In this document: piece by piece, positions 25,597 through 52,015 of the stretch
How positions within the stretch are numbered: position 1 is the stretch's first letter
Layout of the letters: the number at the start of each line of letters is the position of its first letter
Assembly (NCBI GenBank): GCA_046757965.1
Contig: JBHHZI010000002.1
Location: 2,253 to 66,252 of the forward strand
Reading direction: 5' to 3'
From: Acidobacteriota bacterium
GTDB taxonomy: Bacteria > Acidobacteriota > Polarisedimenticolia > SMYD01
DNA: 64,000 bases
Translations under genes and position numbers: made by a program
The notes under the pieces: generated by a model
What the model was told of the DNA's origin: nothing
Database searches by the model: none
Seen by the model: only the letters and a program-made list of their open reading frames with translations

Positions 25597-26711
25597 CCAT
25601 GACGCCAGACGGCGGCACACGGAACGCAGGCCGCGATTCCGGCATGGCGGCCCGGGTCGCGGAGGCGCGGGCGCGCGTCGACGCTCATGTGCGGGACATC
25701 GTGCAGTGGCATTTCGATCCGGCGACCGGCTGTCCGTTCTGGCTCGAGCGCGCGAAGAGTCTGGACTTCGATCCCCGCGAGCAGGTGAAGGGCTACGCGG
25801 ACCTCGCACTGTTCGGTCATTTTCAGGACGAATGGCTGCGCGGTGGTCCGGTGCGGCGCTGGGTCCCGCAGGGGCTGGCCGACCGTCCGGTTTACGTGTT
25901 CGAGACCGGCGGCTCCACCGGCGTGCCGAAATCACGCATCAACATCGAGGACTTCAACAGGGACTACGAGATCTTCGGCGATGCCCTCTCCGACGACGGT
26001 TTCCCGCCGGGCAGCGACTGGCTGATGCTCGGGCCCACCGGCCCCCGCCGCCTGCGGCTGGCGGTGGAGCACCTGGCCCACCACCGGGGAGGGATCTGCT
26101 TCTTCGTCGATCTCGATCCCCGCTGGGTGAGCAAGCTGGTCCGCGCCCGCCGGTTCGCGGAGATGGAGGCGTACAGGAACCACGTCATCGATCAGGCTCT
26201 CACGGTGCTCAGGGCGCACGATTCCATCCGGTGTCTGTTCACCACGCCGAAGCTGCTGTCGGCCCTGTGCGAGAAGATCTCCATCGAGAAGGCGGGTATC
26301 ACGGGTGTGTTCTGCGGCGGCACCGAGATGACCGCCCAGTTCAACCGGCTGGTGCGGGAGGAGCTGGCGCCGGGCGTCGATTTCGTGCCGACCTACGGCA
26401 ACACCCTCATGGGCCTGGCGATGCCGGGGCCGTTCGACCCCGCCGATGACTACGCCATCACCTACTACCCGCCCGTGCCACGAGCGGTGTTCGAGCTGGT
26501 CGATCCCGACAACCCGGCCGTGTCGGTCGACTACGGGGAGACGGGCCGCGTGATGCTGACGACCTTGACCCGCGAGTTCTTCATGCCGCGCTTTCTCGAG
26601 CGGGATGAGGGGGTCCGTGCCCGCCCGTGCGAGAGATTCCCGTGGGACGGGGTCACCAATCTCGGCCTCCTGTCGTCCCTGCAGGCGTCGGTGGCGGTCG
26701 GGGTGTACTGA
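25593..26711 (+). CDS. LuxE-like acyl-protein synthetase / adenylate-forming enzyme (PaaK-like fold).
   Basis: The 372-aa length is LuxE-like. A P-loop FETGGSTGVPK is present. A Cys near the C-terminus (RPCERFPW) sits where LuxE carries its acylated Cys. The gene is coupled to a LuxC-like reductase gene. Confidence 0.5.
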   Translation: MTMTPDGGTRNAGRDSGMAARVAEARARVDAHVRDIVQWHFDPATGCPFWLERAKSLDFDPREQVKGYADLALFGHFQDEWLRGGPVRRWVPQGLADRPVYVFETGGSTGVPKSRINIEDFNRDYEIFGDALSDDGFPPGSDWLMLGPTGPRRLRLAVEHLAHHRGGICFFVDLDPRWVSKLVRARRFAEMEAYRNHVIDQALTVLRAHDSIRCLFTTPKLLSALCEKISIEKAGITGVFCGGTEMTAQFNRLVREELAPGVDFVPTYGNTLMGLAMPGPFDPADDYAITYYPPVPRAVFELVDPDNPAVSVDYGETGRVMLTTLTREFFMPRFLERDEGVRARPCERFPWDGVTNLGLLSSLQASVAVGVY

Positions 26712-28162
26712 TGCTCCACCTGCCGGTGCTGCGGGCCGGCCGCCCATACCGCAGTCTTGACACCATCACCCTGACGGACGTGCGCAGCGGGGAGCCGGTC
26801 GCCACGGTCAGCCAGGCCGGCGCCGCCATGATCGCCCATGACATGGCGGGCGGACACGCACGGCGCCGTCGGCTCCAGGAGATCGGCAGCGCCGCCCGGC
26901 TGGACATCTGCAGGAAAGCCGCGGGCCTGTTCATCGGCGAGTCTCTGCCCGCCGGCGACCGTGTCCAGTCTCCCGCAGACTACGTCGCCTGCCTGTCGGC
27001 AACCACCGGCATGCCGGAGGCGCTGTGCCGGGCCAACATGAAGAAGATCCATTTCGTCCTGGACCGCATGGATGTGGTGCTGGCCGGCCTGACCCGCGGT
27101 CTGGATCTGGACATCGTCGATGCCGGGCACGGCGTGATGGCCGGCCGGCCGGTCGCATACGTCTGTGAGGCGGACCGCCTCGGGGCCGTCCTGCCGAGCA
27201 ACTCGCCCGGGGTGCATTCTCTCTGGATCCCGGCCGTCGCGCTGGGCGTGCCGGTCGTCCTGCGCCCGGGGAGTCGCGAACCCTGGACACCCGTTCGCAT
27301 TGCACAGGCGCTGATCGCTGCGGGGCTGCCCCCGGAGGCCATCAGCTTCTACCCCGGCGGCCATGACGGCGCCACCGAGATCGTGCTGAGAAGTGAGCGG
27401 TCCATGGTCTTCGGGGACGAATCGACGGTTCTTCCGTGGGTCTCGGATCCGCGCGTACAGATTCACGGGCCCGGCTGGAGCAAGGTCCTCCTCGCCGATG
27501 CCGCCGCCTCCTCCTCGCGCGACCATCTCGACCTGATGGTCACCAGCATCGCCGCCAACGGGGGTCGCTCGTGCATCAACGCCTCCGGCGTCTGGACGAC
27601 CTCCGGAGGGGAGGCTCTGGCCGACGCCCTGGCCGGGCGATTGGCCAGGATGAGCGCCCGACCGCTCGACGATCCCGAGGCGAGCCTGGCCGCGTTCTCC
27701 GACCCGGACGTGGCGTCACGCATCGATCAGTTCATCGAGCAGCGCCTGGCGGTGCCGGGGGCCCGGGACATCACGGCGGAGGTGCGCGGCACACCGCGCC
27801 GGGCCCGGGTCGACGGGTGCACGTTCCTGCTGCCGACGATCATTCACGTCACCGAGCCGGATCACCCGCTGGCGGCGGCGGAGTTCCTGTTCCCGTTCGC
27901 GGCGGTGGTGGAGCGACCCCGGGAGTCGATGCTGAGCGCCCTCGGGCCCACCCTGGTCTGCACGGCGATCACGGGCGACCCAGCTCTTGCGCGCGAGCTG
28001 ATGGACTGCGGCTCGATCGAGCGTCTCAACCTGGGGCCGATCCCGACGACCCAGGTGTCGTGGGACCAGCCTCACGAGGGCAACCTGTTCGAGCATCTGT
28101 TCCGGCAGCGGGCGTTCTGCGCGGCGAGAAACGGGCGGCCGGCGGGGACCGGGGCGGCCTGA
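26711..28162 (+). CDS. LuxC-like acyl-CoA reductase (ALDH superfamily, aldehyde-forming).
   Basis: The ATG overlaps the upstream TGA. It has an ALDH-type catalytic Cys context (IAANGGRSCINASGVWT). Its length (about 483 aa) and position after the LuxE-like gene match the luxC/luxE pairing. Confidence 0.55.
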   Translation: MLHLPVLRAGRPYRSLDTITLTDVRSGEPVATVSQAGAAMIAHDMAGGHARRRRLQEIGSAARLDICRKAAGLFIGESLPAGDRVQSPADYVACLSATTGMPEALCRANMKKIHFVLDRMDVVLAGLTRGLDLDIVDAGHGVMAGRPVAYVCEADRLGAVLPSNSPGVHSLWIPAVALGVPVVLRPGSREPWTPVRIAQALIAAGLPPEAISFYPGGHDGATEIVLRSERSMVFGDESTVLPWVSDPRVQIHGPGWSKVLLADAAASSSRDHLDLMVTSIAANGGRSCINASGVWTTSGGEALADALAGRLARMSARPLDDPEASLAAFSDPDVASRIDQFIEQRLAVPGARDITAEVRGTPRRARVDGCTFLLPTIIHVTEPDHPLAAAEFLFPFAAVVERPRESMLSALGPTLVCTAITGDPALARELMDCGSIERLNLGPIPTTQVSWDQPHEGNLFEHLFRQRAFCAARNGRPAGTGAA

Positions 28163-28163
28163 C

Positions 28164-29360
28164 ATGGGCCATGATCCTCGCCTACCGGTCGTGTCCCGAC
28201 CGGGGCCGGATGGAATCTTTCCGGTGCCGGCCGGCGTCTCCTGGGAGGCCCATGTCGGTCCGACGCGCGTCCTGGCCGGATGTGGTGCCCTCGAGCGGCT
28301 GGGGAGTCTGGCGCGGGATCTCGGGGGCAAGCGCGTCCTCGTGGTGACCGATGCCGGTCTGCGGCGGGCCGGACACGTGGAGCGCGGCGTGGCGTCGCTG
28401 AGGGCGGCCCGGGTCACGCCCGTGGTGTTCGATGGGGTGCAGGAGAACCCGACCTCGACGCAGGTGGACGCCGGCACGGCGTTCGCGCGCGATCACGACA
28501 TCGATCTGATCGTCGGGCTCGGAGGCGGCAGTTCGATGGACACGGCCAAGGGCATCAACTTCATCCTCACCAACGGCGGCACCATGGCCGACTACCGGGG
28601 ACGCGGAAAGGCGAGCCAGGCCATGCTCGGCTCCATCGGTGTGCCGACCACTGCCGGCACGGGAAGCGATGCCCAGTCGTATGCGCTGATCTCTGATCCG
28701 GTGACCCGTGTGAAGATGGCGTGCGGGGATCCCAAGGCCCGCTTCACGGCGGTGATTCTCGATCCGGCGCTCTCGCTCACCCAGCCGGAGCACACCACGG
28801 CGGTCACGGCCCTGGATGCCATCGGCCACGCCGTGGAGACGTTCGTGACCAGGAGTCGAACTCCCGTGTCGAGTCTCTACGCGCGGGAATCCTGGCGTCT
28901 GCTGTCGAGCCACCTGCCGCGGGTGCTCGCCACCCCTGCCGATCTCGACGCCCGTGCGGCCATGTTGTGGGGTGCCCACCTGGCCGGGGCCGCCATCGAG
29001 GCCTCAATGCTCGGCGCCGCGCACGCCTGCGCCAACCCGCTGACCTCCCGGTGCCGGCTGGAGCACGGCGTGGCCGTGGCCCTGATGCTGCCGCACGTCG
29101 TCTCGTTCAACCGGCCGGCCGTTGGCGCCGAGTACGGCGAATTGATGTCGATCATCGGTGCGGTCGGAGACGACTTGGCGGAGCGCATCGTGCTCCTGCG
29201 CGGCGCGGCAGGCCTGCCGGGTCGGCTGCGAGATTGCGGGGTGACCGAGGCGGACCTGCAGCCGATGGCCGGCGAGGCGGCCGCGCAATGGACGGGTCAG
29301 CACAACCCGGTGGAATTGACCGTGGACGCGGCGCGGAAGCTCTATGACGCCGCGTACTGA
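28164..29360 (+). CDS. Iron-containing (group III) alcohol dehydrogenase.
   Basis: Motifs include GKRVLVVTDAGL, the Gly-rich LIVGLGGGSSMDTAKG, and His-rich metal-site regions (LDAIGHAVE, AHACANPL). Confidence 0.75.
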   Translation: MGHDPRLPVVSRPGPDGIFPVPAGVSWEAHVGPTRVLAGCGALERLGSLARDLGGKRVLVVTDAGLRRAGHVERGVASLRAARVTPVVFDGVQENPTSTQVDAGTAFARDHDIDLIVGLGGGSSMDTAKGINFILTNGGTMADYRGRGKASQAMLGSIGVPTTAGTGSDAQSYALISDPVTRVKMACGDPKARFTAVILDPALSLTQPEHTTAVTALDAIGHAVETFVTRSRTPVSSLYARESWRLLSSHLPRVLATPADLDARAAMLWGAHLAGAAIEASMLGAAHACANPLTSRCRLEHGVAVALMLPHVVSFNRPAVGAEYGELMSIIGAVGDDLAERIVLLRGAAGLPGRLRDCGVTEADLQPMAGEAAAQWTGQHNPVELTVDAARKLYDAAY

Positions 29361-30519
29361 ACCGGACCGCCGGGGTGTGGTCGCCGCCGCGTGTGGCCTG
29401 CTGGCGTGCGGCCTCGCCGGACCGGCGCCGGCAGGGGACTGGACGACCTTCCGGGGGAACGCCCGCCTGACCGGGCAGGCCAGCGGGATGCTTCCCGAGG
29501 ACCCCGCGGTGCTGTGGACGTTCGAGAGCGAGGACGGCTTCGCCTCCACCGCCGCCATCGAGAAGGATGTGGTGTACGCGGCCTCTCTCGACGGCCGGCT
29601 CCGGGCCCTGCGCCTCGCCACCGGCAAGGTTCTCTGGACCCACGATGTGGGCACGGAGATCAAGTCGTCGCCGGCCGTGCGGGACGGCACGGTCTACTTC
29701 GGTGACGAGGACGGTGTGGTGCACGCCCTCTCGGCGGCCGACGGCCGTTCGCTCTGGACCTACACCACCGGCTCGGCGGTCAGCTCCTCACCGAATTTTT
29801 CCGGCGAGGCGCTGCTCATCGGCTCGCAGGATAATTCCCTCTACAGCCTGGATCGCCGTGACGGAACTCTACGGTGGAAGCTCACGACCGGTTCGTATGT
29901 CTACGCGACGCCGGCGGTGGTCGCCGGGAACGATGCCGTGGCGATCCTGGCCGGGTGCGACGGGTTGCTGCGGTCGGTCCGCGTGCGTGACGGGGAGGAA
30001 CTGGCCAGCGTCGAGGTCGGCGGATACGTCGGGGCCAGTCCGGCGGTCGACGGCTCGGTTGCCTTCGTCGGCACGTTCGAGAACCAGTTCGTGGCGGTGG
30101 ATCTTTCCGCCTGGGCAGTGCTGTGGCGGTTCGAGGATCCCGAACGCAAGTTCCCGTTCTACTCGTCGGCGGCTGTCGCGAAGGACGTCGTCGTGGTTGG
30201 CGGCCGGGACAAGAAGATCCACGCGCTCGACCCGCTCACCGGAAAACCGCTCTGGGAGTACATGTCGAAGGCCCGGGTCGATTCCTCGCCCGTCATCCTG
30301 GGCCCGCGGGTCTTCGTCGGCACCATGGCCGGCGAGATCCTGGCCCTCGACCTGCACACGGGAAAGGTAAGGTGGCGATTCGACACGGGATCCGCTGTGC
30401 TCGCCTCGCCCAGTATTGCCTCCGACCGGCTTGTCATCGGCACGCTGGACGGCGTGCTGTACTGCTTCGGTGCGCCGCCACCGGCGCCGGATGTTCCACC
30501 CACCTCGAGGACACCATGA
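29344..30519 (+). CDS. Secreted PQQ-like beta-propeller repeat protein (third).
   Basis: It has a signal peptide and the DWTTFRGNARLTGQ motif. Blades include GKVLWTH, GRSLWTY, GTLRWKL, AVLWRF, GKPLWEY and GKVRWRF. Confidence 0.65.
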   Translation: MTPRTEPDRRGVVAAACGLLACGLAGPAPAGDWTTFRGNARLTGQASGMLPEDPAVLWTFESEDGFASTAAIEKDVVYAASLDGRLRALRLATGKVLWTHDVGTEIKSSPAVRDGTVYFGDEDGVVHALSAADGRSLWTYTTGSAVSSSPNFSGEALLIGSQDNSLYSLDRRDGTLRWKLTTGSYVYATPAVVAGNDAVAILAGCDGLLRSVRVRDGEELASVEVGGYVGASPAVDGSVAFVGTFENQFVAVDLSAWAVLWRFEDPERKFPFYSSAAVAKDVVVVGGRDKKIHALDPLTGKPLWEYMSKARVDSSPVILGPRVFVGTMAGEILALDLHTGKVRWRFDTGSAVLASPSIASDRLVIGTLDGVLYCFGAPPPAPDVPPTSRTP

Positions 30520-31847
30520 GCGAAACCTCGTCGAGGACGCCGCCGCCCCCGGCCGGTGAGACCGAGGTGGGCAGCGTCTTCGTTTCCAACTATCCGCCGT
30601 ACTCGTTCTGGCGCGACGAGGCCCTTTCCGACCTGGACCGCCGGCTGGCGTCACCGCCGGAAGCCGGCGCGACGTTCGGTCTGTATCTGCATGTGCCGTT
30701 CTGCCGGAAGCGATGCAAGTTCTGCTACTTCCGGGTCTACACCGACCGTGACAGCAAGCAGATCGCGCGCTACCTGTCGGGCCTCGCCGGCGAGGTGGAA
30801 CGGTGTCTGCAGCACCCGGCATTTGCCGCCCGGGCGCCGGAGTTCATCTACTTCGGCGGCGGCACGCCGTCGTTCCTGAGCGTTCGCCAGATCGAGGCGC
30901 TGGTGGGGCGGCTGCGTGGCGCCGTGGAATGGGACGCGGCGCAGGAAATCACCTTCGAATGCGAGCCGGGAACCCTCAGCGCGCCGAAGCTCGAGGCGCT
31001 GCGCGGCATCGGTGTGAATCGCCTGAGCCTGGGGGTGGAGAGCTTCAACGACGAGATCCTCGCGGAGAACGGGCGCGCCCATCTGTCGGCCGAGATCGAG
31101 CGGGTCGTGCCCTGGATCGCGGCGCTGGACTTCGACCAGCTCAACATCGACCTGATCGCCGGCATGGTGGGCGAGACGTGGGAGAGCTGGCGCGAGTCGG
31201 TGCACCGCACCCTGGAGATCGAGCCGGAGAGCATCACCATCTATCAGATGGAGCTGCCGTTCAACACCGTCTACTCATCGGAGGTCATCGGCGGCACGCG
31301 GCCGATGCCCGTGGCGGGCTGGGACCTGAAGCGGGACTGGCACACATGGGCCTTCGAGCAGATGGAGGCGGCTGGATACGAGGTGTCCAGCTCCTATACG
31401 ATGGTCCGCAGGGAGCGGCCCGGTCGGTTCGTCTACCGGGACGCGGTCTGGCACGGCTGCGACATGCTCGGGGCCGGCGTGGCCTCGTTCTCCCACCTCG
31501 GGGGCATTCACTTCCAGAACCTGGCCTCCTGGGAGCCGTACCTCACGCGGGTCGAGGCCGGCCGGATGCCGGTCGAGCGGGCGTTTGCGACCAGCGCCGA
31601 GGACCGACTCGTGAGGGAGACGATCCTGCAGCTCAAGCTGGGCCATCTGTCACCGGACTATTTTCTGGAAAAGTTCGGCGTGGACATCCGGGACCGGTTC
31701 AGCGCCTCGTTTGATGAGCTGCGCGCGGAGGGCTGGATGGCCGACGAGATGGACTCTCTCAGGTTGACCCGGCGTGGGCTCATCCAGGTCGATCAGCTTC
31801 TGCCACGTTTCTATGCCCCGGAGTATCGCAACGCGCGCTACACCTGA
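30516..31847 (+). CDS. Radical SAM enzyme, HemN/HemW-like (oxygen-independent coproporphyrinogen-III-oxidase-like family).
   Basis: The CX3CX2C motif CRKRCKFCYF is present. HemN-like features follow (GGGTPSFLS, LSLGVESFNDEIL, the HemN C-terminal domain). The ATG at 30516 overlaps the PQQ-3 stop. The listed ORF is extended upstream. Confidence 0.75.
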   Translation: MSETSSRTPPPPAGETEVGSVFVSNYPPYSFWRDEALSDLDRRLASPPEAGATFGLYLHVPFCRKRCKFCYFRVYTDRDSKQIARYLSGLAGEVERCLQHPAFAARAPEFIYFGGGTPSFLSVRQIEALVGRLRGAVEWDAAQEITFECEPGTLSAPKLEALRGIGVNRLSLGVESFNDEILAENGRAHLSAEIERVVPWIAALDFDQLNIDLIAGMVGETWESWRESVHRTLEIEPESITIYQMELPFNTVYSSEVIGGTRPMPVAGWDLKRDWHTWAFEQMEAAGYEVSSSYTMVRRERPGRFVYRDAVWHGCDMLGAGVASFSHLGGIHFQNLASWEPYLTRVEAGRMPVERAFATSAEDRLVRETILQLKLGHLSPDYFLEKFGVDIRDRFSASFDELRAEGWMADEMDSLRLTRRGLIQVDQLLPRFYAPEYRNARYT

Positions 31848-31865
31848 GACGGGAGAGCCAGACTC

Positions 31866-33125
31866 ATGAGCAGCCATCACGACGTGATCATCATCGGCGG
31901 GGGACCCGCCGGCGCGACGGTGGCGGCCCTGGAGGCCGAGGCCGGTCGCGACGTGATGGTCCTCGAGCGGGACACCTTCCCGCGCTTCCACATCGGCGAA
32001 TCTCTCATGCCGGCCACCTACTGGACCTTCGAGCGGCTCGGCGTGCTCGACAAGCTGGCGGCGGCAGGATTCGTGCGCAAGCAGAGCGTCCAGTTCTTCT
32101 CGTCCGGCGGCAAGGGGGCGCTGCCGTTCTACTTCTCCGATTTCGATCCTCATCCCAGCTCCGTCAGCTTCCAGGTGGAACGCAGCACATTCGATACGAT
32201 CCTGCTGGAGCATGCGAAGGAGAACGGAGCGCAGGTGTCACACGGCGTCAACGTGACCGGTGTGCTGCTCGAGGGGAAGCGCGTGACCGGTGTGCGAACC
32301 GCCGGCGGCACGGGAGGCGCCCGTGAGCTGACGGCGCCCGTGGTCGTCGATGCCAGCGGGCAGCATGCTCTCCTGTCCCGTCGTTTCGGCCTGATGCGCA
32401 CGGACCCGCGTCTTCGGCACTGCGCCTACTTCACCCGCTTTGCCGGCGCGGCTCGCGCCGCAGGGCGGGACGAGGGGGCCACGCTGATCCTTCACGTCGG
32501 CGGCGGGTCGTCGTGGTTCTGGTACATCCCGCTCCCCGGTGACCGGGTCAGCGTGGGTGTCGTCGGACACATCGACCGCCTGGTCCGGGGCCGGGCGCCC
32601 GATCCGCAGCAGGTGTTCGACGAGGAGGCGGCGCGCTGTCCGGCGCTGCAGGAGCGCCTCGCCGGCGCGACGCAGGAGGGGCGTGTGGAGGTCCAGCGAG
32701 ACTTCTCCTACGCCGCGAAGGCGATCGCCGGCGATGGCTGGGTGCTGGCCGGCGACGCGTTCGGCTTTCTCGACCCGATCTATTCCTCCGGCATCTTCCT
32801 GGCCCTGAAGGGCGCGGAATTCGCCGCGGATTCCATCGAAGCCGCATTCGACCACGATGACTTCTCGGCCACGAGGCTGGGTGCCCACGGCCCCGAGTTC
32901 ATCGCCGGCATGGAGGCGCTGCGGCGGCTCGCCTACGCCTACTACGACGAATCGTTCAACTTCCGGCATTTTCTGTCGCGCCACCCGGAGCATCGCACGG
33001 ACCTGATCCATCTTCTCATCGGTAACGTGTACCGGCGATCATGCACCGGCATCTTCGAGTCCATGAACCACGAATCTCCACAGGACGGATACGAACCGCT
33101 CCGCCTGCCCTCAGACGGATCGTGA
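31866..33125 (+). CDS. FAD-dependent flavin-halogenase-like oxidoreductase (tryptophan-halogenase family fold).
   Basis: It carries the GxGxxG FAD motif (IIGGGPAGA). The halogenase-family WxWxIP motif is present (SWFWYIPLPGD). The second signature FxxPxxSxG is also present (FLDPIYSSGI). Whether the catalytic Lys is present is uncertain from reading by eye. Confidence 0.55.
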   Translation: MSSHHDVIIIGGGPAGATVAALEAEAGRDVMVLERDTFPRFHIGESLMPATYWTFERLGVLDKLAAAGFVRKQSVQFFSSGGKGALPFYFSDFDPHPSSVSFQVERSTFDTILLEHAKENGAQVSHGVNVTGVLLEGKRVTGVRTAGGTGGARELTAPVVVDASGQHALLSRRFGLMRTDPRLRHCAYFTRFAGAARAAGRDEGATLILHVGGGSSWFWYIPLPGDRVSVGVVGHIDRLVRGRAPDPQQVFDEEAARCPALQERLAGATQEGRVEVQRDFSYAAKAIAGDGWVLAGDAFGFLDPIYSSGIFLALKGAEFAADSIEAAFDHDDFSATRLGAHGPEFIAGMEALRRLAYAYYDESFNFRHFLSRHPEHRTDLIHLLIGNVYRRSCTGIFESMNHESPQDGYEPLRLPSDGS

Positions 33126-33349
33126 ACCGCCCGGTCCGGCTGCTGCTGGTCGTGGCGGCGGCGACGTTGTACGTGCTGCACAACGATGTCTGGCTGTGGA
33201 ACGACAGCCGCCGTGTCCTCGGGTTGCCCGCCAGCCTGGCGTATCACGTGGCGTACTGCCTGGCCGCGGCCGTGCTGATGGGGCTCTTCGTGGGCTTCGC
33301 CTGGCCCCATGAGGGGGATGACGACGCCGTCGAGGGTCCTCCCCGGTGA
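33122..33349 (+). CDS. Small membrane protein (DUF3311-like, typical partner of sodium:solute symporters).
   Basis: It is about 75 aa with two hydrophobic helices (LLLVVAAATLYVL, AYCLAAAVLMGLFVGF). It lies immediately 5' of the symporter gene with a 4-bp overlap. The GTG start is inferred. Confidence 0.35.
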   Translation: MNRPVRLLLVVAAATLYVLHNDVWLWNDSRRVLGLPASLAYHVAYCLAAAVLMGLFVGFAWPHEGDDDAVEGPPR

Positions 33350-34809
33350 CCCTGGCGGTCATCCTGATCTATCTCGCCGCCGTGCTGCTCGTCGGAGTGC
33401 TGGGCCACCGGCTGTTTCGCGGCACCGGCGAGGATTACTTCCTCGCCACCCGCACCATCGGACCGTTCGTCCTGCTGATGTCGCTGTTCGGCACCCACAT
33501 GACGGCGTTCTCCCTCCTGGGGGCGTCGGGAGAGGCGTATCATGAGGGCGTCGGTGTGTTCGGCCTGATGGCCAGCTCATCGGCCCTGGTGGTGCCGCTG
33601 GTGTTCCTCGGCGTGGGAACGCGCCTGTACCGGTGCGGCAAGCGACTCGGTCATGTCACCCAGGTGCAGTACTTCAGGGAGCGCTGGGAATCCGACGGGC
33701 TGGGACTCCTGCTGTTCATCGTCACGGTGGCGCTGGTCATCCCGTACCTGCTCATCGGTGTGATGGGCGGTGGGATCGCCCTGAACCAGATCACCGGCGG
33801 TGATGTGCCGGAGTGGGTGGGCGGGCTGATGATCTGCGGCGTGGTGCTGGGCTATGTGACCACCGGCGGTCTGCGCAGCACCGCCTGGGCCAACACCTTC
33901 CAGACCCTGGTGTTCATGATCCTCGGGGGAGTGGCCTTCGCGGTGGTCGTGCACGATCTCGGCGGGCTGGACGCCGCGCTGGATCGTGTGGCGGCCGTCT
34001 CGCCGTCTCTTCTCGTGCCCGGGCAGGCCATGCCGCTGGGCCGGATGGTCTCCTACACGCTCATCCCCCTGTCCGTCGGCATGTTTCCCCACATCTTCAT
34101 GCACTGGCTGACCGCCCGCCGTGTCGAGACGTTCCGGCTCACCGTCATCCTCTATCCGCTCTGCGTCGCGGTGGTGTGGCTGCCCAGCGTGCTGATGGGG
34201 CTGTTCGGCGCGGTGGAGTTCCCGGGGCTGGCGGGGCCTGCCGCCAACGCCGTGCTCGTCAAGCTGATTCACGCCCATGCGCCCGATCTGCTCGCCGGCC
34301 TGCTGGGCGCCGGGGTCTTCGCCGCCGTGATGTCGTCGCTGGATTCCCAGACGCTTTCCCTGGGCACCATGTTCGCCCGCGACATCGTCCTGCACCACGG
34401 CTTTCAGGACCACCTGAGCGAGCGGTATCAGGTCATTCTCGGGCGCCTGTTCGTGTCCGGTGTGCTGCTGGTCACCTTCCTGCTGTCGCTGGTGGCCGAC
34501 CGCAGCATCTTCCGCCTGGGTATCTGGTCGTTCACCGGCTTCGCCGCACTCTTCCCGCTGGTCGTCGCGGCGCTGTTCTGGCGACGCAGCACCGCGGCCG
34601 GAGCCATCGCCGCGGTGCTGACCATGGCCGTCCTGTGGGTCCGGGCCTTCGTGCGCAGCGGCGGCGGCGCCTCCTCCGGCCCGGGAGGGCTGATGCCGGT
34701 GGCCTCGATCCTGGCGGCCTCCGCCGCGGCGCTGGTGGTGGTGTCCCTCGTGACCCGGCCGCCCTCGCCCGCAGCCCTGGCGCGTTTCTTCCCCGAGGGC
34801 GACGGATGA
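33346..34809 (+). CDS. Sodium:solute symporter family (SSS) transporter.
   Basis: The 487-aa ORF has about 13 transmembrane helices. Its N-terminus (YFLATRTIGPFVLLMSLFGTHMTAFSLLGASGEAY) is typical of SSS/PutP/ActP-like transporters. Confidence 0.8.
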   Translation: MTLAVILIYLAAVLLVGVLGHRLFRGTGEDYFLATRTIGPFVLLMSLFGTHMTAFSLLGASGEAYHEGVGVFGLMASSSALVVPLVFLGVGTRLYRCGKRLGHVTQVQYFRERWESDGLGLLLFIVTVALVIPYLLIGVMGGGIALNQITGGDVPEWVGGLMICGVVLGYVTTGGLRSTAWANTFQTLVFMILGGVAFAVVVHDLGGLDAALDRVAAVSPSLLVPGQAMPLGRMVSYTLIPLSVGMFPHIFMHWLTARRVETFRLTVILYPLCVAVVWLPSVLMGLFGAVEFPGLAGPAANAVLVKLIHAHAPDLLAGLLGAGVFAAVMSSLDSQTLSLGTMFARDIVLHHGFQDHLSERYQVILGRLFVSGVLLVTFLLSLVADRSIFRLGIWSFTGFAALFPLVVAALFWRRSTAAGAIAAVLTMAVLWVRAFVRSGGGASSGPGGLMPVASILAASAAALVVVSLVTRPPSPAALARFFPEGDG

Positions 34810-36134
34810 GCCTGTCGCCCGGCCGTGCCCTGCGCATCGCCCACATCACGCCCGGTGCGGGCGGCATGGTCTGCGGGAGCTGTCTGCACGACAACACACT
34901 CGCGGCTGCCCTCGAGAGGGAGGGCCACCAGGTGGCCCTGGTGCCGATCTACACGCCGCTGCGCACCGACGAGGAGGACGTGAGTCTTTCCCGTGTGTTC
35001 TATGGCGCGGTCAATATCTATCTCCAGCAGCACAGCCGGCTGTTCCGCCACACCCCGTGGATGCTCGACCGCCTCCTGGATCGTCCGGGGTTGTTGGCGT
35101 GGGTCGGACGGCGGGCGGGGAGCGTGGACGCGCGCCAGCTCGGCGCCCTCACACGCTCGATGCTCGAGGGCGAGGAAGGCCACCAGGCGAAGGAACTCGA
35201 GAAACTCGTGCACTGGCTGGGGACCGGGTTCCGTCCCGACATCGTGCACCTGTCCAACTCGTTGCTGCTGGGACTGGCCCGTCGACTCCGGGAGGCGACC
35301 GGGGCGCCGGTCGTCTGCTCGGTGCAGGGAGAAGACCTGTTTGTCGATGAATTGCCGGCAGCCGACCGGACGGCGGTGACCGAACTGCTCTGCCGGCGTG
35401 CCCGGGACGTGGACGCGTTCATCGCTCCCGGTGAGGCGGTGGCCCGCCGGATGGGCGCGCGCCTGGGCGTGGAGGCGGAGCGGATGCATCGCGTCCCGCT
35501 GGGTATTCGACTCGACGGCCACGTCGGAACGCCGCGCGCCGTGGCGGTCGGAGCGCCGTTCACCATCGGCTACATGGCCCGCATCTGTCCCGAGAAGGGG
35601 TTGCACCTGCTGGTCGACGCCTTCCGGCGGCTGGCCGACCGCGGCGGCGAGCGGCGCATCCGCCTCGAGGTTGCCGGCAGCATCGGGCCTCGTGACGCGG
35701 CCTATCTCGAGGGCATCCGGCGGCAACTGGATGGGTGGCAGCTCGCCTCGTCGGTGGTCGTGCACGGTGAGGTGGACCGCGCGGCCAAGCTCGCGCTCCT
35801 GGCGCGCGCGGACGTGGTCTCGGTGCCGGCGACCTATCCGGAGGCGAAGGGGCTGTACGTGCTCGAGGCGCTGGCCAGCGGCACGCCGGTGGTGCAGCCG
35901 GAGGCGGGCGCCTTCCCGGAAATCCTCGCCGGAACCGGCGGTGGAATCCTGTACGATGCGGACCGGCCCGGCGCGCTGGCGCAGGCCCTGGAGAAGATGA
36001 TGACCGATGACGCCGAGAGGCTGGCGCTGGCCCGGGCCGGGCACGCGGCGGTGGTGGCCCGGTTCAGCGATACGACCATGGCGCGAACCACCGTGGCGGT
36101 CTACGAGCAGATCCTGAAAGGATACGGCCGATGA
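34806..36134 (+). CDS. Family 4 glycosyltransferase (GT-B fold).
   Basis: The C-terminal GT4 signature is present (ARADVVSVPATYPEAKGLYVLEALASGTPVV), along with EX7E-like motifs. The ATG overlaps the symporter stop. Confidence 0.75.
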   Translation: MSLSPGRALRIAHITPGAGGMVCGSCLHDNTLAAALEREGHQVALVPIYTPLRTDEEDVSLSRVFYGAVNIYLQQHSRLFRHTPWMLDRLLDRPGLLAWVGRRAGSVDARQLGALTRSMLEGEEGHQAKELEKLVHWLGTGFRPDIVHLSNSLLLGLARRLREATGAPVVCSVQGEDLFVDELPAADRTAVTELLCRRARDVDAFIAPGEAVARRMGARLGVEAERMHRVPLGIRLDGHVGTPRAVAVGAPFTIGYMARICPEKGLHLLVDAFRRLADRGGERRIRLEVAGSIGPRDAAYLEGIRRQLDGWQLASSVVVHGEVDRAAKLALLARADVVSVPATYPEAKGLYVLEALASGTPVVQPEAGAFPEILAGTGGGILYDADRPGALAQALEKMMTDDAERLALARAGHAAVVARFSDTTMARTTVAVYEQILKGYGR

Positions 36135-36571
36135 AGTCGAGCGTCCCGTTCGTGGCCCGTCGCACCGTGGAGTTCTCCGATTCGGACATGGGTGGCGTGG
36201 TGCATTTCTCCCGTTACCTGGTGTACATGGAGACGGCGGAGCACCAGTTCCTGAGGTCCCGGGGCATCGAGGTGCATGCCGAGTTCGAGGGCCGGTTGCT
36301 GAGCTGGCCGCGCGTGGCGATCCGCTGCGAATACCGGCAGGCCGCGCGGTTTCGCGATGCCATCGACATCGAGGTGCGCGTTCTGCGCCGGGGAACACGG
36401 TCGGTGACCTACGGGTTCCGGCTGCGCCGGGCCGATGAGGACCTGGCGACCGGTGAGATGACCGCGGTCTGCTGCGTCGTGGATCCGGGCACGGGAACGT
36501 TGCAGTCGGTGGAGATTCCTGCCGCCATCGCTGCGGCCATCGGTGAGGGCGAGCGAGACGGAACGAGCTGA
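36131..36571 (+). CDS. Hotdog-fold acyl-CoA thioesterase (YbgC/FadM / 4HBT family).
   Basis: The 146-aa length and the motif DSDMGGVVHFSRYLVYMETAEHQFL (catalytic Asp near the N-terminus) fit 4HBT-type thioesterases. Confidence 0.65.
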   Translation: MKSSVPFVARRTVEFSDSDMGGVVHFSRYLVYMETAEHQFLRSRGIEVHAEFEGRLLSWPRVAIRCEYRQAARFRDAIDIEVRVLRRGTRSVTYGFRLRRADEDLATGEMTAVCCVVDPGTGTLQSVEIPAAIAAAIGEGERDGTS

Positions 36572-36624
36572 CGGCGCGGTCGGCGACGCCACGAGGACGT
36601 CGTCAGCGATGAGGACGGAGGGCG

Positions 36625-37323
36625 ATGATGACGGAGGCAGGCCACGACGCGGTGCTCAGGGTCGAAGAGGTCACCCGCAGCTACCCGGCCGGACGCACGA
36701 CACTGGAGGTGCTGCGTGGCGTGACGTTCACCATGGGTGCCGCCTCGGCGCTGGCCATCACCGGCCCGTCCGGATCGGGCAAGAGCACGCTGCTTCATCT
36801 CATCGGTGGTCTCGACCGGCCGACGTCGGGCCGCATCGAATACGATGGCACCTCGCCTCAGGACCTTCCCGAACCGCAGCTCGCGGCATTCCGCAACCGC
36901 CGGGTCGGGTTCGTCTTCCAGGACCATCATCTGCTGCCGCAGTACTCGGTGCTCGAGAACGTCCTGCTGCCGACGCGGGCGCTGGGTGGCGGCGGTGGCC
37001 CGGAATCGGTGGCCCGTGCCCGGCACCTGCTCGAGCGCGTCGGACTGGACCGGCGTCTGACCCATCACCCGGATGAACTGTCCGGCGGTGAGCGGCAACG
37101 CACGGCGGTGGCGCGGGCGCTGATCAATCGCCCCGGCATGCTGCTGTGCGACGAGCCGACCGGCAGCCTCGACCGCGCATCGGCCAAGGCCGTGGCCGGG
37201 CTCCTCTTCGATCTCCACGCCGCGGAGCAGAATCTGCTCATCATCGTGACCCACAATCTCGATCTGGCCCGCAGATTCGACCGGCGTCTCGAGCTAGTGG
37301 ATGGCCGATGCTCCGCAGTCTGA
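36625..37323 (+). CDS. ABC transporter ATP-binding protein (MacB/LolD type).
   Basis: Walker A is GPSGSGKST, the signature is LSGGERQR, and Walker B is LLCDEPTGSLD. Confidence 0.85.
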   Translation: MMTEAGHDAVLRVEEVTRSYPAGRTTLEVLRGVTFTMGAASALAITGPSGSGKSTLLHLIGGLDRPTSGRIEYDGTSPQDLPEPQLAAFRNRRVGFVFQDHHLLPQYSVLENVLLPTRALGGGGGPESVARARHLLERVGLDRRLTHHPDELSGGERQRTAVARALINRPGMLLCDEPTGSLDRASAKAVAGLLFDLHAAEQNLLIIVTHNLDLARRFDRRLELVDGRCSAV

Positions 37324-40300
37324 TCCACCATCGCCGTGTGAGCACCGCGGTGGTGCTGGCGGGAGCAGTCGCGACCGCGGTGTTGACCGGTGCGCTGCTG
37401 GTCGGTGATTCGGTGCGCGGGAGCCTGGCGGACCTGACCCGGGAGCGCCTCGGACGGATCGACGAGGTCCTCGTCGGCCCCCGCTTCTTCCGGGAACATC
37501 TCGCCGACGAGCTGACGGCACCGCCGGATCGGGTGTGCGAGACGGTGGTGCCCGCCATCTTCATGACGGGGAGCGCCGTGCACGGTACGACCGGCGCGCG
37601 AACCTCGGGTGTCTCGGTGCGCGGTGTCGATGGCCGGTTCCTCGACCTGCTGGACTGGCCGGACGGCGGCGTGCCGGACCTCGCGACAGCAGAGGGGGCG
37701 TCGTTTCCGCCCGTGGTGGTGAACGAGTCGCTGGCGCGCGACCTCGATGCCCACCCGGGTGACCCGATTCTCCTGTCGTTTCCGCGGGCCTCGGACGTGC
37801 CGAGGGACACGGTCCTGGGGGAGAAGGATCCGGCGAGCGTGGTCAAGCGCTTGCGGCTGACGGTGGTGGGCGTCGTCTCAGACCGGGGCGGGGGTCGCTT
37901 CGGACTGGCGGCCAACCAGGTGGCGCCGCGCAATGCCTTCGTGCCCCTGAGCCGCCTGCAGCGGACGCTGGATCTGGCGGGGCGGGCGAACGTGCTGCTG
38001 GCGGCGTGCGCGGAGGCGTCCCCGACGGAAGAGCTGGACCGGAGCGTCGGCGCGGTCCTGTCTCTGGCGGACCTCGGGTTGAGTGTGACGGACGCGGGCG
38101 ACCGCCTGGACCTGCAGAGCCGGCGTCTCGTTCTGGCGCCGTCCACCGTCAAGGTCATCGATGAGGTGGCGGCGGCGGAGGGTCTTCCCGTGCGACACGT
38201 GGTGACCTACCTGGCCAACCGCATCGAGGTGGGCCGTCGCGCCGTGCCGTACTCGACGGTGAGCGGACTGGATCTCGGTCCGGCGCCGCCGTTCGAGACG
38301 CTGCGCCCCATTGCGGGCCATCTCGACGGCGGACTCGGGGACCGTGAGATCGTGCTGAACGAGTGGGCGGCGACCGACCTTTCGGCCTCTCCCGGGGATG
38401 AGGTGCGACTGACCTACTTCGCCGTCGGCCCGCACGAGGAACTGCGCACGGCATCGGCGTCGTTCACGCTGCGGGCGGTGGTGGCCATGGAGGGGCTCGG
38501 TGCCGATGCCGGTCTCACCCCGGACTATCCCGGCATCCAGGATGCCGGCGACATGGCCGGCTGGAACCCGCCGTTTCCGGTGGACCTGAGCCAGGTGCGT
38601 CCGGAGGATGAGGCGTACTGGGACCGCTGGCGGGCCGTGCCGAAGGCCTTCGTGTCGCTGGCCACCGGCTCGGCACTGTGGGGCACGCGTCACGGCGCGG
38701 TGACGTCGGTGCGTGTGGCGGCGAGCACGGCCGCGGCCCGGAACGGTTTCCTGGAAGACGTGCGCACGAGGTTGCTGTCGGCGGCGCACCCGTTTCGATT
38801 CCAGCCGGTGAAGACCGCGGGGTTGAGCGCGGCGTCCGGGGCGACCGATTTCAGCATGCTGTTCGTCAGCTTCAGTTTCTTCCTCATCCTGGCGGCGGCG
38901 ATGCTGGTGACCCTGCTGTTCGGCCTGGGTGTCGAGCAGCGGGCCCGGGAGATCGGGTTGCGCCGGGCGATCGGCACGCCGATGGCCCGCGTCCGCAACC
39001 AGCTCCTCGGTGAGGGACTGCTGCTGGCGGTGGTGGGCGGGGGTCTCGGCGTGGCGGGTGGCTGGGCCTACGGCTGGCTGATGATGACCGGGCTACGCAC
39101 GGTCTGGGTCGGCGCCGTGGGCACGCCCGTCCTCTTCCTCCACGTGACCGCGACGAGCCTGCTCGGCGGCTGGATCGGTTCGGTCCTGGTGGTGGAGATC
39201 GCCGTCGGCCTGGCCGTGCGCCGCCTCCGCAAGGTGGCGCCCACCGCCCTGCTGGCCGGCGCCGGCAGCCTGGTCCGCCGGGCGCCGGCGGGGCGGGTGA
39301 CGACCGCTCTGGCGCTCGGTGGCTGGCTGACCGGAGCTGGACTGCTGGCCACCATGATCCTCACCGGCGCGGGGGAGTCTCCCGGGCTGGCCTTCGGCGT
39401 GGGCGGGGCGCTGCTGGTGGGTTGCCTGGCCACGTTTGCACGCTGGTGCCGCCGCCGGCCGCCTTCGACCCTGGCGCGGGCACCGGGGCCCATCGCGATG
39501 GCAGCGCGCAACAGCGCCGAGAACCCGGGACGCAGTCTGCTCTCGATGGCGCTGGTGGCGTCGACGAGCTTCATCATCATCCTGGTCGCCGCCAATCGCC
39601 ACGAGTTCGGCGACGAGGAGACCGATCGCCGGTCGGGAACCGGCGGTTTTGCGCTGCTGGCCGAGGCGACGGTTCCCGTGGTGGCGGACCTCTCTTCGGA
39701 GACGGGACGCGCGGCAGTGGGGTTGAGCGCCGATGCCTCCCTGGGACCCGATGTCGAGATCTTTCCGCTGCGCCTGCTGCCGGGCAATGACGCCAGTTGC
39801 CTGAATCTCTACCGGCCGTCGGCGCCGCGGGTGCTGGGAGTGCCGCCGGAGTTCGTCGCGCGGGGCGGTTTCACCTTCCAGGCCCATGCCGCCGGCCCGA
39901 CCGCCGGGTGGAATGTTCTGACGTCTTCATTCGATGATGGCGCCATCCCGGCCATCGCCGACGCCAAGTCCGCCCAGTGGCTCTGGAAGCTCGGTCTCGG
40001 GGACGATGTCATCCTCCCGGACGAGGCCGGCCGCCTTCTTCATCTGCGCCTGGTCGGCCTGTTGCAGGCCAGCATCTTCCAGAGCGAGATCCTCATCCCG
40101 GAGGCGGCGTTTCTGGAGCATTTCCCGGGGCGCGCGGGTTATTCGGTGTTTGCCGTGGATGCCCCGGCCGCGCGCTCGGCGAGCGTGGGCCTGGCCCTGG
40201 AGCGTGGGCTGGCGCCGTTCGGCGTCGATGCGGTCTCCACCCGGGAGCGGCTGGCCCGCTTCCAGGCGGTGGAGAACACCTATCTCTCCACCTTCCAGAT

Positions 40301-40661
40301 GCTCGGCGGGCTCGGGCTCCTGCTGGGGACGGTGGGCCTGGGCCTGGTGCTCCTGCGCAACGTGAGCGAGCGACGGGGCGAGCTGGCGACGCTACGGGCC
40401 TGCGGGTTCGCACGTCGCCGGCTCACCTGGATGATTGCCGCCGAGACCGGCTTCCTGCTGGCGACCGGGCTGGCGGCCGGCAGCATCGCCGCGCTCGCCT
40501 CGGCCGTGCCCCGACTGGTGACAGGCTCGCTGCACCTGCCGTGGGCCTTCCTCGGGGGCACGCTGGCGATTGTCCTGGTCACCGGCATGCTCTCCTGCGT
40601 GGCGGCGGTGGCCGGCGCCCTTCGACAGCCGCTCCTGCCGTCGCTCAAGGCGGAACGGTAG
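37308..40661 (+). CDS. Large FtsX/MacB-type ABC transporter permease (two FtsX 4-transmembrane modules with large periplasmic domains).
   Basis: The start MLRSLIHH overlaps the ATPase gene. There are two sets of four transmembrane helices (around residues 560-700 and 1000-1117) separated by large extracytoplasmic domains. Confidence 0.7.
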   Translation: MLRSLIHHRRVSTAVVLAGAVATAVLTGALLVGDSVRGSLADLTRERLGRIDEVLVGPRFFREHLADELTAPPDRVCETVVPAIFMTGSAVHGTTGARTSGVSVRGVDGRFLDLLDWPDGGVPDLATAEGASFPPVVVNESLARDLDAHPGDPILLSFPRASDVPRDTVLGEKDPASVVKRLRLTVVGVVSDRGGGRFGLAANQVAPRNAFVPLSRLQRTLDLAGRANVLLAACAEASPTEELDRSVGAVLSLADLGLSVTDAGDRLDLQSRRLVLAPSTVKVIDEVAAAEGLPVRHVVTYLANRIEVGRRAVPYSTVSGLDLGPAPPFETLRPIAGHLDGGLGDREIVLNEWAATDLSASPGDEVRLTYFAVGPHEELRTASASFTLRAVVAMEGLGADAGLTPDYPGIQDAGDMAGWNPPFPVDLSQVRPEDEAYWDRWRAVPKAFVSLATGSALWGTRHGAVTSVRVAASTAAARNGFLEDVRTRLLSAAHPFRFQPVKTAGLSAASGATDFSMLFVSFSFFLILAAAMLVTLLFGLGVEQRAREIGLRRAIGTPMARVRNQLLGEGLLLAVVGGGLGVAGGWAYGWLMMTGLRTVWVGAVGTPVLFLHVTATSLLGGWIGSVLVVEIAVGLAVRRLRKVAPTALLAGAGSLVRRAPAGRVTTALALGGWLTGAGLLATMILTGAGESPGLAFGVGGALLVGCLATFARWCRRRPPSTLARAPGPIAMAARNSAENPGRSLLSMALVASTSFIIILVAANRHEFGDEETDRRSGTGGFALLAEATVPVVADLSSETGRAAVGLSADASLGPDVEIFPLRLLPGNDASCLNLYRPSAPRVLGVPPEFVARGGFTFQAHAAGPTAGWNVLTSSFDDGAIPAIADAKSAQWLWKLGLGDDVILPDEAGRLLHLRLVGLLQASIFQSEILIPEAAFLEHFPGRAGYSVFAVDAPAARSASVGLALERGLAPFGVDAVSTRERLARFQAVENTYLSTFQMLGGLGLLLGTVGLGLVLLRNVSERRGELATLRACGFARRRLTWMIAAETGFLLATGLAAGSIAALASAVPRLVTGSLHLPWAFLGGTLAIVLVTGMLSCVAAVAGALRQPLLPSLKAER

Positions 40662-48815: not shown

Positions 48816-50252
<1,437 letters not shown>

Positions 50253-50284
50253 GAACGCTTCTCCCGCTCTGGAATTTACAGCAT

Positions 50285-50325: not shown

Positions 50326-50401
50326 TAACTGATTGAAACTAAATTAGTTATTGCAAATAAGGCGAGTTCGTGGCATATTGACTGCCACACTGGAGGCACG
50401 A

Positions 50402-52015
<1,614 letters not shown>

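Follow-up and report, generated by a model that had tools for sequence, protein, structure and literature searches.

The locus and its halogenase-type gene

We analysed a stretch of 64,000 nucleotides from contig JBHHZI010000002.1 of an Acidobacteriota bacterium (the whole stretch is referred to as the window), and our subject is the open reading frame (ORF) at its positions 31866-33125 on the + strand, together with the operon in which that ORF lies. The ORF very probably encodes a genuine flavin-dependent halogenase (FDH) in which the catalytic lysine is present, its halogenating activity being predicted from sequence and modelled fold. Translation starts with an ATG at 31866 and the stop codon ends at 33125, giving a protein of 419 amino acids; a Shine-Dalgarno-like element (GGGAGAG) lies about 10 nt 5' of the ATG, and a third-position GC content of 0.84, in a window with about 68% GC overall, is what a real gene should show. 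The identical protein is recorded at NCBI as MFQ5717995.1, from an Acidobacteriota metagenome-assembled genome, where it is named only “NAD(P)/FAD-dependent oxidoreductase.” The gene and the features recognised within it are as follows:

31866..33125, + strand: predicted flavin-dependent halogenase of the phenol/pyrrole (PltA/CndH/FasV-like) branch, from profiles, PDB matches, alignment and predicted fold
31896..31913, + strand: GxGxxG motif for binding of flavin adenine dinucleotide (FAD), G11-G-G-P-A-G16 (GGGPAG), read from the sequence
31989..32003, + strand: H-I-G-E-S motif, residues 42-46, with E45, from the orthologue alignment
32079..32081, + strand: K72, candidate catalytic lysine (chloramine-forming or directing hypohalous acid, HOX), from alignment to solved halogenases
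32514..32531, + strand: WxWxIP motif, W217-F-W-Y-I-P222, from the orthologue alignment
32766..32792, + strand: Fx.Px.Sx.G motif, F301-L-D-P-I-Y-S-S-G309, inside GDAFGFLDPIYSSG and including the halide-site (S/T)-G dipeptide

An earlier note on this DNA had recognised an FDH-type enzyme from the GxGxxG, WxWxIP and FxxPxxSxG motifs, and this reading is borne out: all three are present, and the matches of the protein to Pfam and to solved halogenases, given below, mean that they reflect homology and not chance. The GxGxxG motif is defined for FDHs in PMC7336383 and PMC8407142, and the Fx.Px.Sx.G motif with its (S/T)-G halide site is described in PMC7336383. Conservation was counted over the 120 best orthologues, which are 55-74% identical to the query and are themselves unnamed or generically named. 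G11, G13 and G16 are kept in 119 of the 120, the remaining sequence being gapped there; G44, E45 and S46 are invariant (120/120), and the xGES motif they form is found also in FasV, PltA, Mpy16, ChlB4 and CndH when these are aligned with the protein. Both tryptophans of the WxWxIP motif, W217 and W219, occur in all 120 orthologues, and I221 and P222 in 119. The block GDA..F.DP..S.G is likewise invariant at G296, D297, F301, D303, P304, S307 and G309, and position 308, next to the invariant G309, is occupied by serine in 87 and by threonine in 32 of the 120. Such conservation across the alignment indicates purifying selection on the residues specific to halogenases.

The same note could not place the catalytic lysine by eye, and would have given up the halogenase reading had structure-guided alignment found the lysine missing and the protein grouped with enzymes like geranylgeranyl reductase or the ubiquinone hydroxylases. 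Neither was observed. In HMMER alignments K72 pairs, with high posterior probability, with lysines of CndH, PltA, Mpy16, ChlB4 and FasV: the query segment A-G-F-V-R-K72-Q is matched to A-G-F-P-I-K-R in CndH, N-F-P-K-K-F in PltA, G-F-P-K-K-F in Mpy16, G-F-P-K-K-Y in ChlB4 and G-F-Q-R-K-Y in FasV. Counted along the CndH chain, the paired residue is K76, which we take to be the catalytic lysine of the CndH structure paper (Buedenbender et al., 2009). K72 is invariant in the 120 orthologues, and we regard it as a candidate for the active-site lysine equivalent to PrnA K79 and CndH K76.

Placement within the flavin-dependent halogenases

Family placement was addressed through rankings of bit scores and of template modelling (TM) scores. 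The protein matches the Pfam model Trp_halogenase (PF04820) at E 2.7e-26, its 92.9 bits lying well over the gathering score of 21. The ten best sequence matches in PDB, with E-values of 2e-55 to 6e-33, are nine halogenase chains, namely FasV (8ZOP), PltA, Mpy16, CndH, ChlB4, Bmp2, a Bmp2 triple mutant, CmlS and RadH, and the uncharacterised protein 3NIX. Halogenases score 118-192 bits in this search and non-halogenase chains at most 39, the best of the latter being a squalene monooxygenase (E 4e-9). The best NCBIfam model is that of the halogenase CmlS (NF033113), with 190.3 bits for a cut-off of 900, the match covering the N-terminal 329 of 570 profile positions.

The predicted fold gives the same ranking. 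An AlphaFold2 model, computed from an input of 44 orthologues, has a mean predicted local distance difference test score (pLDDT) of 90.6 and a predicted TM score (pTM) of 0.91. When this model was compared with PDB by Foldseek, the top 20 consisted of halogenase entries and the uncharacterised 3NIX (TM 0.75-0.87, 26-32% identity), and flavin monooxygenases, PqsL and geranylgeranyl reductase ranked below them (TM 0.65-0.71).

Within the FDHs, the protein is not close to PrnA, since PrnA, RebH, PyrH and Thal are all absent from the 43 PDB sequences matched at E <= 1e-3. Tryptophan halogenases have about 510-530 amino acids, and the protein has 419. The phmmer alignments with PltA and Mpy16 reach query residues 400 and 390, whereas those with FasV, CndH and CmlS end near 330; the C-terminal helical region held in common with PltA and Mpy16 carries the conserved pattern YY....F..F....P..R.D...L..G.VY. 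The short length, the lack of tryptophan-halogenase relatives and the PltA/Mpy16-like C-terminus together point to the phenol/pyrrole branch of the FDHs, to which the protein would belong at about 30% identity to the characterised members. This branch is called “variant B” in the literature (PMC8407142; PMC7336383).

The operon

The halogenase gene is the eighth of 14 co-directional genes on the + strand, which extend over about 19 kb (approximately 21911-40661). Nine of the 13 junctions between these genes overlap, mostly by 4 nt (ATGA or GTGA type), and the largest gap is 53 nt. The other 13 genes are:

21911..24124, + strand: secreted BamB/PQQ-repeat beta-propeller (prop1), first gene of the operon (Pfam PQQ_2, 8.6e-32; NCBIfam BamB-like)
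24121..25596, + strand: BamB/PQQ-repeat beta-propeller (prop2; Pfam and NCBIfam; 62-70% identity in syntenic loci)
25593..26711, + strand: EhpF-like atypical adenylating enzyme of the ANL superfamily (PDB EhpF, 3L2K/3HGU, E 8e-44)
26711..28162, + strand: protein of the aldehyde dehydrogenase (ALDH) superfamily, lying next to the adenylase as EhpG lies next to EhpF (Pfam Aldedh, 3.7e-12; PDB ALDHs at E 1e-9 or weaker)
28164..29360, + strand: iron-containing alcohol dehydrogenase (Fe-ADH; Pfam Fe-ADH, 7.8e-47, and ADH_Fe_C; NCBIfam)
29344..30519, + strand: BamB/PQQ-repeat beta-propeller (prop3; Pfam Beta-prop_ACSF4, 3e-55, and PQQ_2, 1.7e-44)
30516..31847, + strand: HemN-like (class C) radical S-adenosylmethionine (SAM) enzyme with the motif CxxxCxxC (FCRKRCKFC in the translation)
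33122..33349, + strand: small DUF3311-type membrane protein, from comparison by eye with a gene of the syntenic locus L054 that carries PF11755
33346..34809, + strand: sodium:solute symporter (SSF; PanF/PutP/MctP-like; Pfam SSF, 6.5e-42; NCBIfam)
34806..36134, + strand: GT4-family glycosyltransferase (Pfam and NCBIfam)
36131..36571, + strand: 4HBT/YbgC-type hotdog acyl-CoA thioesterase (profile scans and precomputed Pfam annotations of related loci)
36625..37323, + strand: LolD/MacB/DevA-like ABC ATPase (NCBIfam)
37308..40661, + strand: FtsX/MacB-type ABC permease of 1,100 amino acids, last gene of the operon (Pfam FtsX and MacB_PCD)

Of all proteins of the operon the EhpF-like adenylase is the best conserved, with 71-76% identity across phyla. 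It reaches 22.6 bits with the AMP-binding model PF00501, for which the gathering score is 29.9, and is a clear member of the ANL superfamily by its PDB match. It passes no Pfam or NCBIfam threshold and is recognised only by PDB search, the family thus being missed by current profile libraries. An identity of the adenylase/ALDH pair as LuxC/LuxE (fatty acyl reductase and synthetase) was considered and rejected: there is no Pfam match to these at E <= 0.01, and EhpF is a clear match.

The HemN-like protein scores under the cut-offs of the STM4012, ChuW/HutW, HemN and HemW models. The longest ORF of its gene opens with a GTG at 30123 (574 amino acids), but both the orthologues and an ATGA overlap with the stop codon of the preceding gene point to the ATG at 30516 (443 amino acids) as the real start, and the Arg/Gly-rich N-terminal extension of about 130 amino acids is probably not translated. 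DUF3311 proteins, such as that encoded just after the halogenase gene, are the usual partners of SSF symporters.

The genomic hallmark of variant B halogenases, a carrier protein encoded together with its loading enzyme, is not seen here: none of the 14 operon genes encodes an acyl or peptidyl carrier protein (ACP or PCP), which makes a CoA-bound or free substrate more likely for this enzyme.

Distribution and synteny of the orthologues

More than 7,600 homologues of the halogenase were found at E <= 1e-10, and orthologues at 50-74% identity are present in Acidobacteriota, Poribacteria, Latescibacterota, Gemmatimonadota and Planctomycetota. The idea that such an enzyme would be rare outside the actinomycetes and cyanobacteria therefore finds no support; in these phyla the enzyme type is common. 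Scanning one genome per species gave 53 loci from the same phyla, the acidobacterial ones belonging to Thermoanaerobaculia and Polarisedimenticolia among others, plus one distant match in Verrucomicrobia.

The gene order of the operon recurs in about 20 of the 53 loci, none of them from Poribacteria, with 45-76% identity in tblastn searches with the window proteins. Gene calling and clustering of these loci led to the same result. Three further genomes (L054-L056), for which gene calls were independent and Pfam annotations precomputed, show the same synteny, which altogether spans four phyla: Acidobacteriota, Latescibacterota, Gemmatimonadota and Planctomycetota. Most of the syntenic loci have extra genes between the radical SAM gene and the halogenase gene, encoding a secreted propeller, a TonB-dependent receptor and/or a PaaK-type ligase. 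Directly 5' of the halogenase lies the TonB receptor in nine loci and the PaaK-type ligase in eight, and the radical SAM gene takes this position only in the window; a PaaK-type ligase is found within 10 kb of the halogenase in 11 loci. The TonB receptor of the sister loci passes the cut-off of the siderophore-receptor model TIGR01783 (281 against 223.5 bits) and reaches 97 bits with the TonB-hemin model, for which 317 are required. The ligase carries Pfam AMP-binding_C_2 and scores 259 bits with the NCBIfam model PaaK and more weakly with FlxY and BagE/FevW. In L027 and L044 the gene directly before the ligase encodes a chorismate pyruvate-lyase (PF01947, 37 bits for a gathering score of 22), which in L009 lies two genes upstream of the ligase, and a 4HBT thioesterase is encoded downstream of the halogenase in the sister loci as well. 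As none of chorismate lyase, PaaK-type ligase and TonB receptor is encoded in the window, we regard its operon as a reduced version.

Among the syntenic loci sampled, the window is the only one in which the HemN-like gene abuts the halogenase gene, one to three extra genes being present in L002, L004, L020, L044 and L054-L056; this suggests a lineage-specific deletion. In L054 (1-1539) and L055 (959-1882), from two genomes of the same sample, PhzF-family genes and a GNAT acetyltransferase gene lie divergently upstream of the operon.

The Poribacteria have other surroundings. In L006, L012, L015, L028, L050 and 12 more loci the halogenase orthologue is preceded by a type IV pilus/secretin set (a PilM-like protein and a secretin of about 1,020 amino acids), and the 3' side holds a convergent TPR protein, a PhyH-family dioxygenase and a Gfo/Idh/MocA oxidoreductase, with no obvious biosynthetic partners. 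A second context (L009, L013 and L023) has, 5' of the halogenase, a propeller, an NAD-dependent epimerase-like protein, a Gfo/Idh/MocA protein, an aldo-keto reductase, a Kelch-repeat protein and a PaaK-type ligase. All of these labels except that of the ligase were given by eye, and what this cluster has in common with the acidobacterial operon is the ligase-halogenase pair alone.

Comparison with known systems

The pyrrolyl-S-carrier-protein halogenases PltA, Mpy16 and Bmp2 (5DBJ, 5BUK and 5BVA) have the same fold as the protein (TM 0.84-0.87) and share with it GxGxxG, xGES, the lysine column, WxWxIP, GDA..F.DP..S.G and the C-terminal helices to about residue 400. Identity to them is 29-32%, and the operon differs from their systems in encoding no carrier protein and no proline adenylation enzyme or dehydrogenase; the context suggests an aryl acid or CoA thioester as the substrate rather than a pyrrolyl-S-PCP. 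FasV (8ZOP, an FAD complex), which we take to be the fasamycin halogenase, is the best match both in sequence (E 2e-55) and in structure (E 3.8e-39, TM 0.84). Identity to FasV is about 30% over the structural alignment, however, the sequence alignment stops near residue 328, the C-terminal region differs, and no polyketide synthase (PKS) gene lies near the query. With CndH, CmlS and ChlB4, which are phenol-type and variant B-like (3E1T, 3I3L and 7FCO), the protein has its motifs in common, K72 corresponding to CndH K76, at 27-31% identity and, unlike them, outside any non-ribosomal peptide synthetase (NRPS) or PKS context. The structural-genomics entry 3NIX, a flavoprotein of Cytophaga hutchinsonii, is of similar size and fold (TM 0.82, E 3e-40, alignment to residue 391, 27% identity) and, as it is itself uncharacterised, does not help in the assignment.

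At the level of the gene cluster, the nearest description is that of the “Halo_AMP” clusters of sponge-associated Acidobacteriota, Latescibacterota and Poribacteria, which have no MIBiG relative and no known product (bioRxiv 10.64898/2026.08.03.742642). Their parts are an FDH, a phenylacetate-CoA-ligase (PCL)-type A domain, unusually frequent PQQ-like domains, TonB, radical SAM, glycosyltransferase and thioesterase components and a BrtI-like ABC exporter (10.64898/2026.08.03.742642). Judged by this parts list, the eleven sister loci that carry a bona fide PaaK-type ligase (L005, L007, L009, L013, L022-L024, L027, L031, L035 and L044) fit the description. The window operon differs in having no such ligase, its only adenylase being the EhpF-like enzyme, and a search rule that asks for an FDH together with an AMP-binding domain might miss it, that adenylase being sub-threshold for PF00501. 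The preprint proposes peptidic products for Halo_AMP (10.64898/2026.08.03.742642), which our data neither support nor exclude.

The logic of the sister loci, from chorismate pyruvate-lyase through aryl-acid activation to FDH and thioesterase, is like that of the Bmp5/Bmp6-type bromophenol pathways and the ambigol (Ab) pathway. Bmp5-type enzymes belong to another flavoenzyme lineage and are decarboxylating brominases with a single component, and in the ambigol pathway the halogenase works on a substrate bound to a carrier protein; unlike these pathways, the window operon has no P450, carrier protein or chorismate lyase. A further likeness is to EhpF and EhpG, of the D-alanylgriseoluteic acid phenazine pathway, which reduce an aryl carboxylate to the aldehyde. 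The genes at 25593-26711 and 26711-28162 mirror this adjacent pair of an atypical adenylase of about 355 amino acids and an ALDH-family protein of about 460, although the window holds no phenazine core genes. Adjacent ehpF and ehpG genes are found in phenazine-modification operons, and their products are classed as modifying the phenazine tricycle (PMC11278526).

A proposed pathway to a halogenated aryl-acid derivative

Taken together, the data make it probable, in our view, that the protein is a two-component FDH of the phenol/pyrrole branch, serving an operon for an exported, possibly glycosylated, halogenated metabolite derived from an aryl acid. Halogenating activity, substrate class (aryl acid or thioester), order of the steps and product are what we infer. 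An aryl carboxylic acid pathway is indicated by the EhpF homologue with its adjacent ALDH and Fe-ADH, by the PaaK-type ligase and chorismate lyase of the sister loci, and by the thioesterase of the 4HBT superfamily.

By analogy with the established FDH mechanism, FADH2 delivered by an unlinked flavin reductase would bind at the GxGxxG site, and its reaction with O2 and a halide (chloride or bromide) would yield HOX; the tryptophans of WxWxIP would hold the substrate away from the flavin, and K72 would capture HOX and direct it onto an electron-rich aromatic ring. In the pathway as we picture it, an aromatic acid, probably of the 4-hydroxybenzoate or phenylacetate type and either made elsewhere or imported by the SSF symporter, would be activated by the EhpF-like adenylase in the window and by the PaaK-type CoA ligase in the sister loci. 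The ring would then be halogenated, plausibly on the thioester-bound substrate, and the product released by the 4HBT thioesterase; the ALDH-like protein and Fe-ADH would reduce the carboxylate, the HemN-like radical SAM enzyme and the GT4 glycosyltransferase would tailor the product further, and the MacB-type ABC system would export it. There is precedent for a chorismate lyase working with a flavin-dependent halogenase on 4-hydroxybenzoate (PMC10579414), and for 3-chloro-4-hydroxybenzoate as a building block, in ambigol (Kresna et al., 2021, in the reference list of PMC10300848).

Several observations weigh against this proposal. Neither a flavin reductase nor a carrier protein was found in the window, and the operon leaves no room for one, although genes for two-component FDHs are commonly without a flavin reductase gene nearby (PMC8407142). 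The nearest characterised halogenases are only about 26-32% identical to the protein, which scores under the curated cut-off of every NCBIfam equivalog (190 against 900 for CmlS), and its NCBI name is only that of a generic oxidoreductase. The 53 loci were retrieved by peptide patterns and do not amount to an unbiased sample, and the gene calling and clustering behind the synteny analysis are heuristics of our own. Chorismate lyase, PaaK-type ligase and TonB receptor were all absent when the 64 kb were searched by tblastn, and with these three families missing, the aryl-acid assignment draws in part on the orthologous loci. In the 17 pilus-type loci of Poribacteria the orthologue stands alone beside the pilus/secretin genes, so that the operon is not strictly required. 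The order of the steps is conjecture, and so is what the three propellers, the radical SAM enzyme and the SSF symporter would do.

A more specific version of the halogenated aryl-acid pathway, which we think rather unlikely as it stands, would have the metabolite exported by MacB and, in most lineages, recaptured by the siderophore-type TonB receptor: a halogenated, glycosylated aryl metallophore or extracellular redox shuttle, working with the secreted BamB/PQQ-like propellers that always accompany the operon, in a pathway conserved in at least four phyla. If this were true, Acidobacteriota, Latescibacterota, Gemmatimonadota and Planctomycetota would use halogenation as part of a widespread, near-housekeeping physiology, and not as a strain-specific decoration of antibiotics.

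FDHs are well understood as a class, and the enzyme itself is no surprise. Of interest is a large orthologous group across at least five phyla, generically labelled in the public databases and set in an operon whose synteny crosses phyla. If the enzyme halogenates as predicted, common bacteria of soil, sediment and sponges would be an unrecognised source of organohalogens, and the operon, at about 19 kb, is a tractable target for heterologous expression. For the annotation of the gene two corrections follow: with the catalytic lysine present it is a candidate halogenase and not a reductase, and its neighbours indicate aryl-acid and not lipid chemistry.

Alternative readings

The main rival is a protein of FDH fold that does not halogenate, a flavin monooxygenase or hydroxylase whose substrate would be an aromatic ring or a protein side chain, in the manner of the tryptophylquinone maturases QhpG, LodB and GoxB. 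QhpG is the second-best NCBIfam model of the protein (129.7 bits), LodB (90.7) and GoxB (77.6) also match, the databases label the clade as generic oxidoreductase, and a radical SAM gene adjoins the halogenase gene in the window. QhpG likewise has a radical SAM neighbour, QhpD. However, all three maturase models are matched below their cut-offs (240 for QhpG, 400 each for LodB and GoxB) and below the halogenase model, and the best matches in sequence and structure are halogenases. The radical SAM neighbour is HemN-like and not a peptide cross-linker of the SPASM type, and no candidate for a maturase precursor protein was seen in the operon. Residues with a role in HOX chemistry only, namely the lysine, WxWxIP and the (S/T)-G of the halide site, are strictly conserved in the 120 orthologues; as we found no indexed paper on whether QhpG lacks the lysine and WxWxIP, the diagnostic value of these motifs rests on the general FDH literature. 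We consider a non-halogenating enzyme of this kind improbable.

Still less probable is a role in the uptake or modification of an imported tetrapyrrole or siderophore, in which the HemN-like enzyme would act like ChuW/HutW in anaerobic haem degradation, the TonB receptor would import the compound, and the FDH would act on a pyrrole-containing breakdown product or on a metallophore. The radical SAM protein does reach 170 bits with ChuW/HutW, its best model giving 183, a TonB-dependent receptor that passes the siderophore-receptor cut-off lies directly 5' of the FDH gene in the nine loci mentioned, and the C-terminal region of the FDH is that of the pyrrole halogenases PltA and Mpy16. Yet the radical SAM score lies under every curated cut-off, that of ChuW/HutW included, the sister-locus receptor is of siderophore and not of haem type by its scores, and the window operon has no TonB receptor at all; the adenylase, ALDH and ADH, the GT4 enzyme, the thioesterase and the exporter fit biosynthesis better than catabolism.

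The earlier note had placed the gene in a lipid locus and derived from this a halogenated lipid or glycolipid as the product. Some of the operon could be read in this way: it has a GT4 enzyme, a hotdog thioesterase of acyl-CoA type and a LolD/DevA-like ABC exporter; the adenylase, ALDH-like reductase and ADH are formally compatible with conversion of a fatty acid to a fatty alcohol; and the Halo_AMP preprint reports matches to BrtI, which is part of the exporter of the bartoloside glycolipids (10.64898/2026.08.03.742642). The Pfam and NCBIfam scans, which covered essentially every credible ORF of the 64 kb, returned no fatty-acid, fatty acid synthase (FAS), polyketide, PKS or lipid-assembly gene, and neither the operon nor the rest of the scanned 64 kb holds an acyltransferase, ACP or other gene for building a chain, so that the description as a lipid locus finds no support. 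The adenylase, a homologue of EhpF of a phenazine carboxylate pathway, is no fatty-acyl ligase, and the sister loci carry chorismate lyase and the PaaK-type aryl ligase beside the halogenase. The conserved partners thus indicate an aryl carboxylic acid in place of the lipid, a glycosylated product remaining plausible given the GT4 gene within the operon. Characterised FDHs carry out electrophilic substitution on electron-rich, mainly aromatic, carbons; the halogenation of unactivated alkyl chains is the work of non-haem-iron or CylC-type enzymes. A lipid substrate from the surrounding genes is accordingly very hard to reconcile with these data.

Finally, a reductase or hydroxylase of isoprenoid lipids or quinones, like geranylgeranyl reductase or UbiH/UbiF, is effectively refuted by the curated cut-offs and the ranking of solved structures: the geranylgeranyl-reductase superfamily model TIGR02032 gives 121 bits, and some orthologues are annotated as “geranylgeranyl reductase family protein,” but this score is under the cut-off of 158.8, the model for the UbiH/UbiF/VisC/COQ6 hydroxylases (TIGR01988) gives 36.9 bits against 224.65, the solved geranylgeranyl reductase 3OZ2 (E 4.6e-8, TM 0.65) falls far behind the halogenases (E 2e-55, TM 0.84-0.87), and the halogenase lysine and WxWxIP are invariant.

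Other genes in the window

Outside the operon lie genes for multihaem cytochromes and NHL propellers, a trio of sugar-tailoring genes, and genes for a tRNA synthetase, an SNF2 helicase, malic enzyme, GcvP, a TRAP and a betaine ABC transporter, response regulators, a PAS kinase, TPR and FG-GAP proteins, a peptidase and a redoxin. On the - strand at 93-6806, Paired_CXXCH multihaem cytochromes (93-2024 and 4758-5507) alternate with NHL-repeat beta-propellers (1856-2971 and 5511-6806), and among these genes, at 2946-4754 on the same strand, lies one for a protein of 603 amino acids with no Pfam match; the region may be an extracellular electron-transfer module. The sugar-tailoring trio (7361-10177, + strand) consists of a CmcI-type rhamnosyl O-methyltransferase, a DegT/DnrJ aminotransferase and a hexapeptide acyltransferase, and is separated from the halogenase operon by more than 11 kb with housekeeping genes in between. 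At 48819-53347, a regulator of the ScfR type (short-chain fatty acyl-CoA) is divergent from malate synthase and isocitrate lyase, the three forming a glyoxylate-shunt unit.

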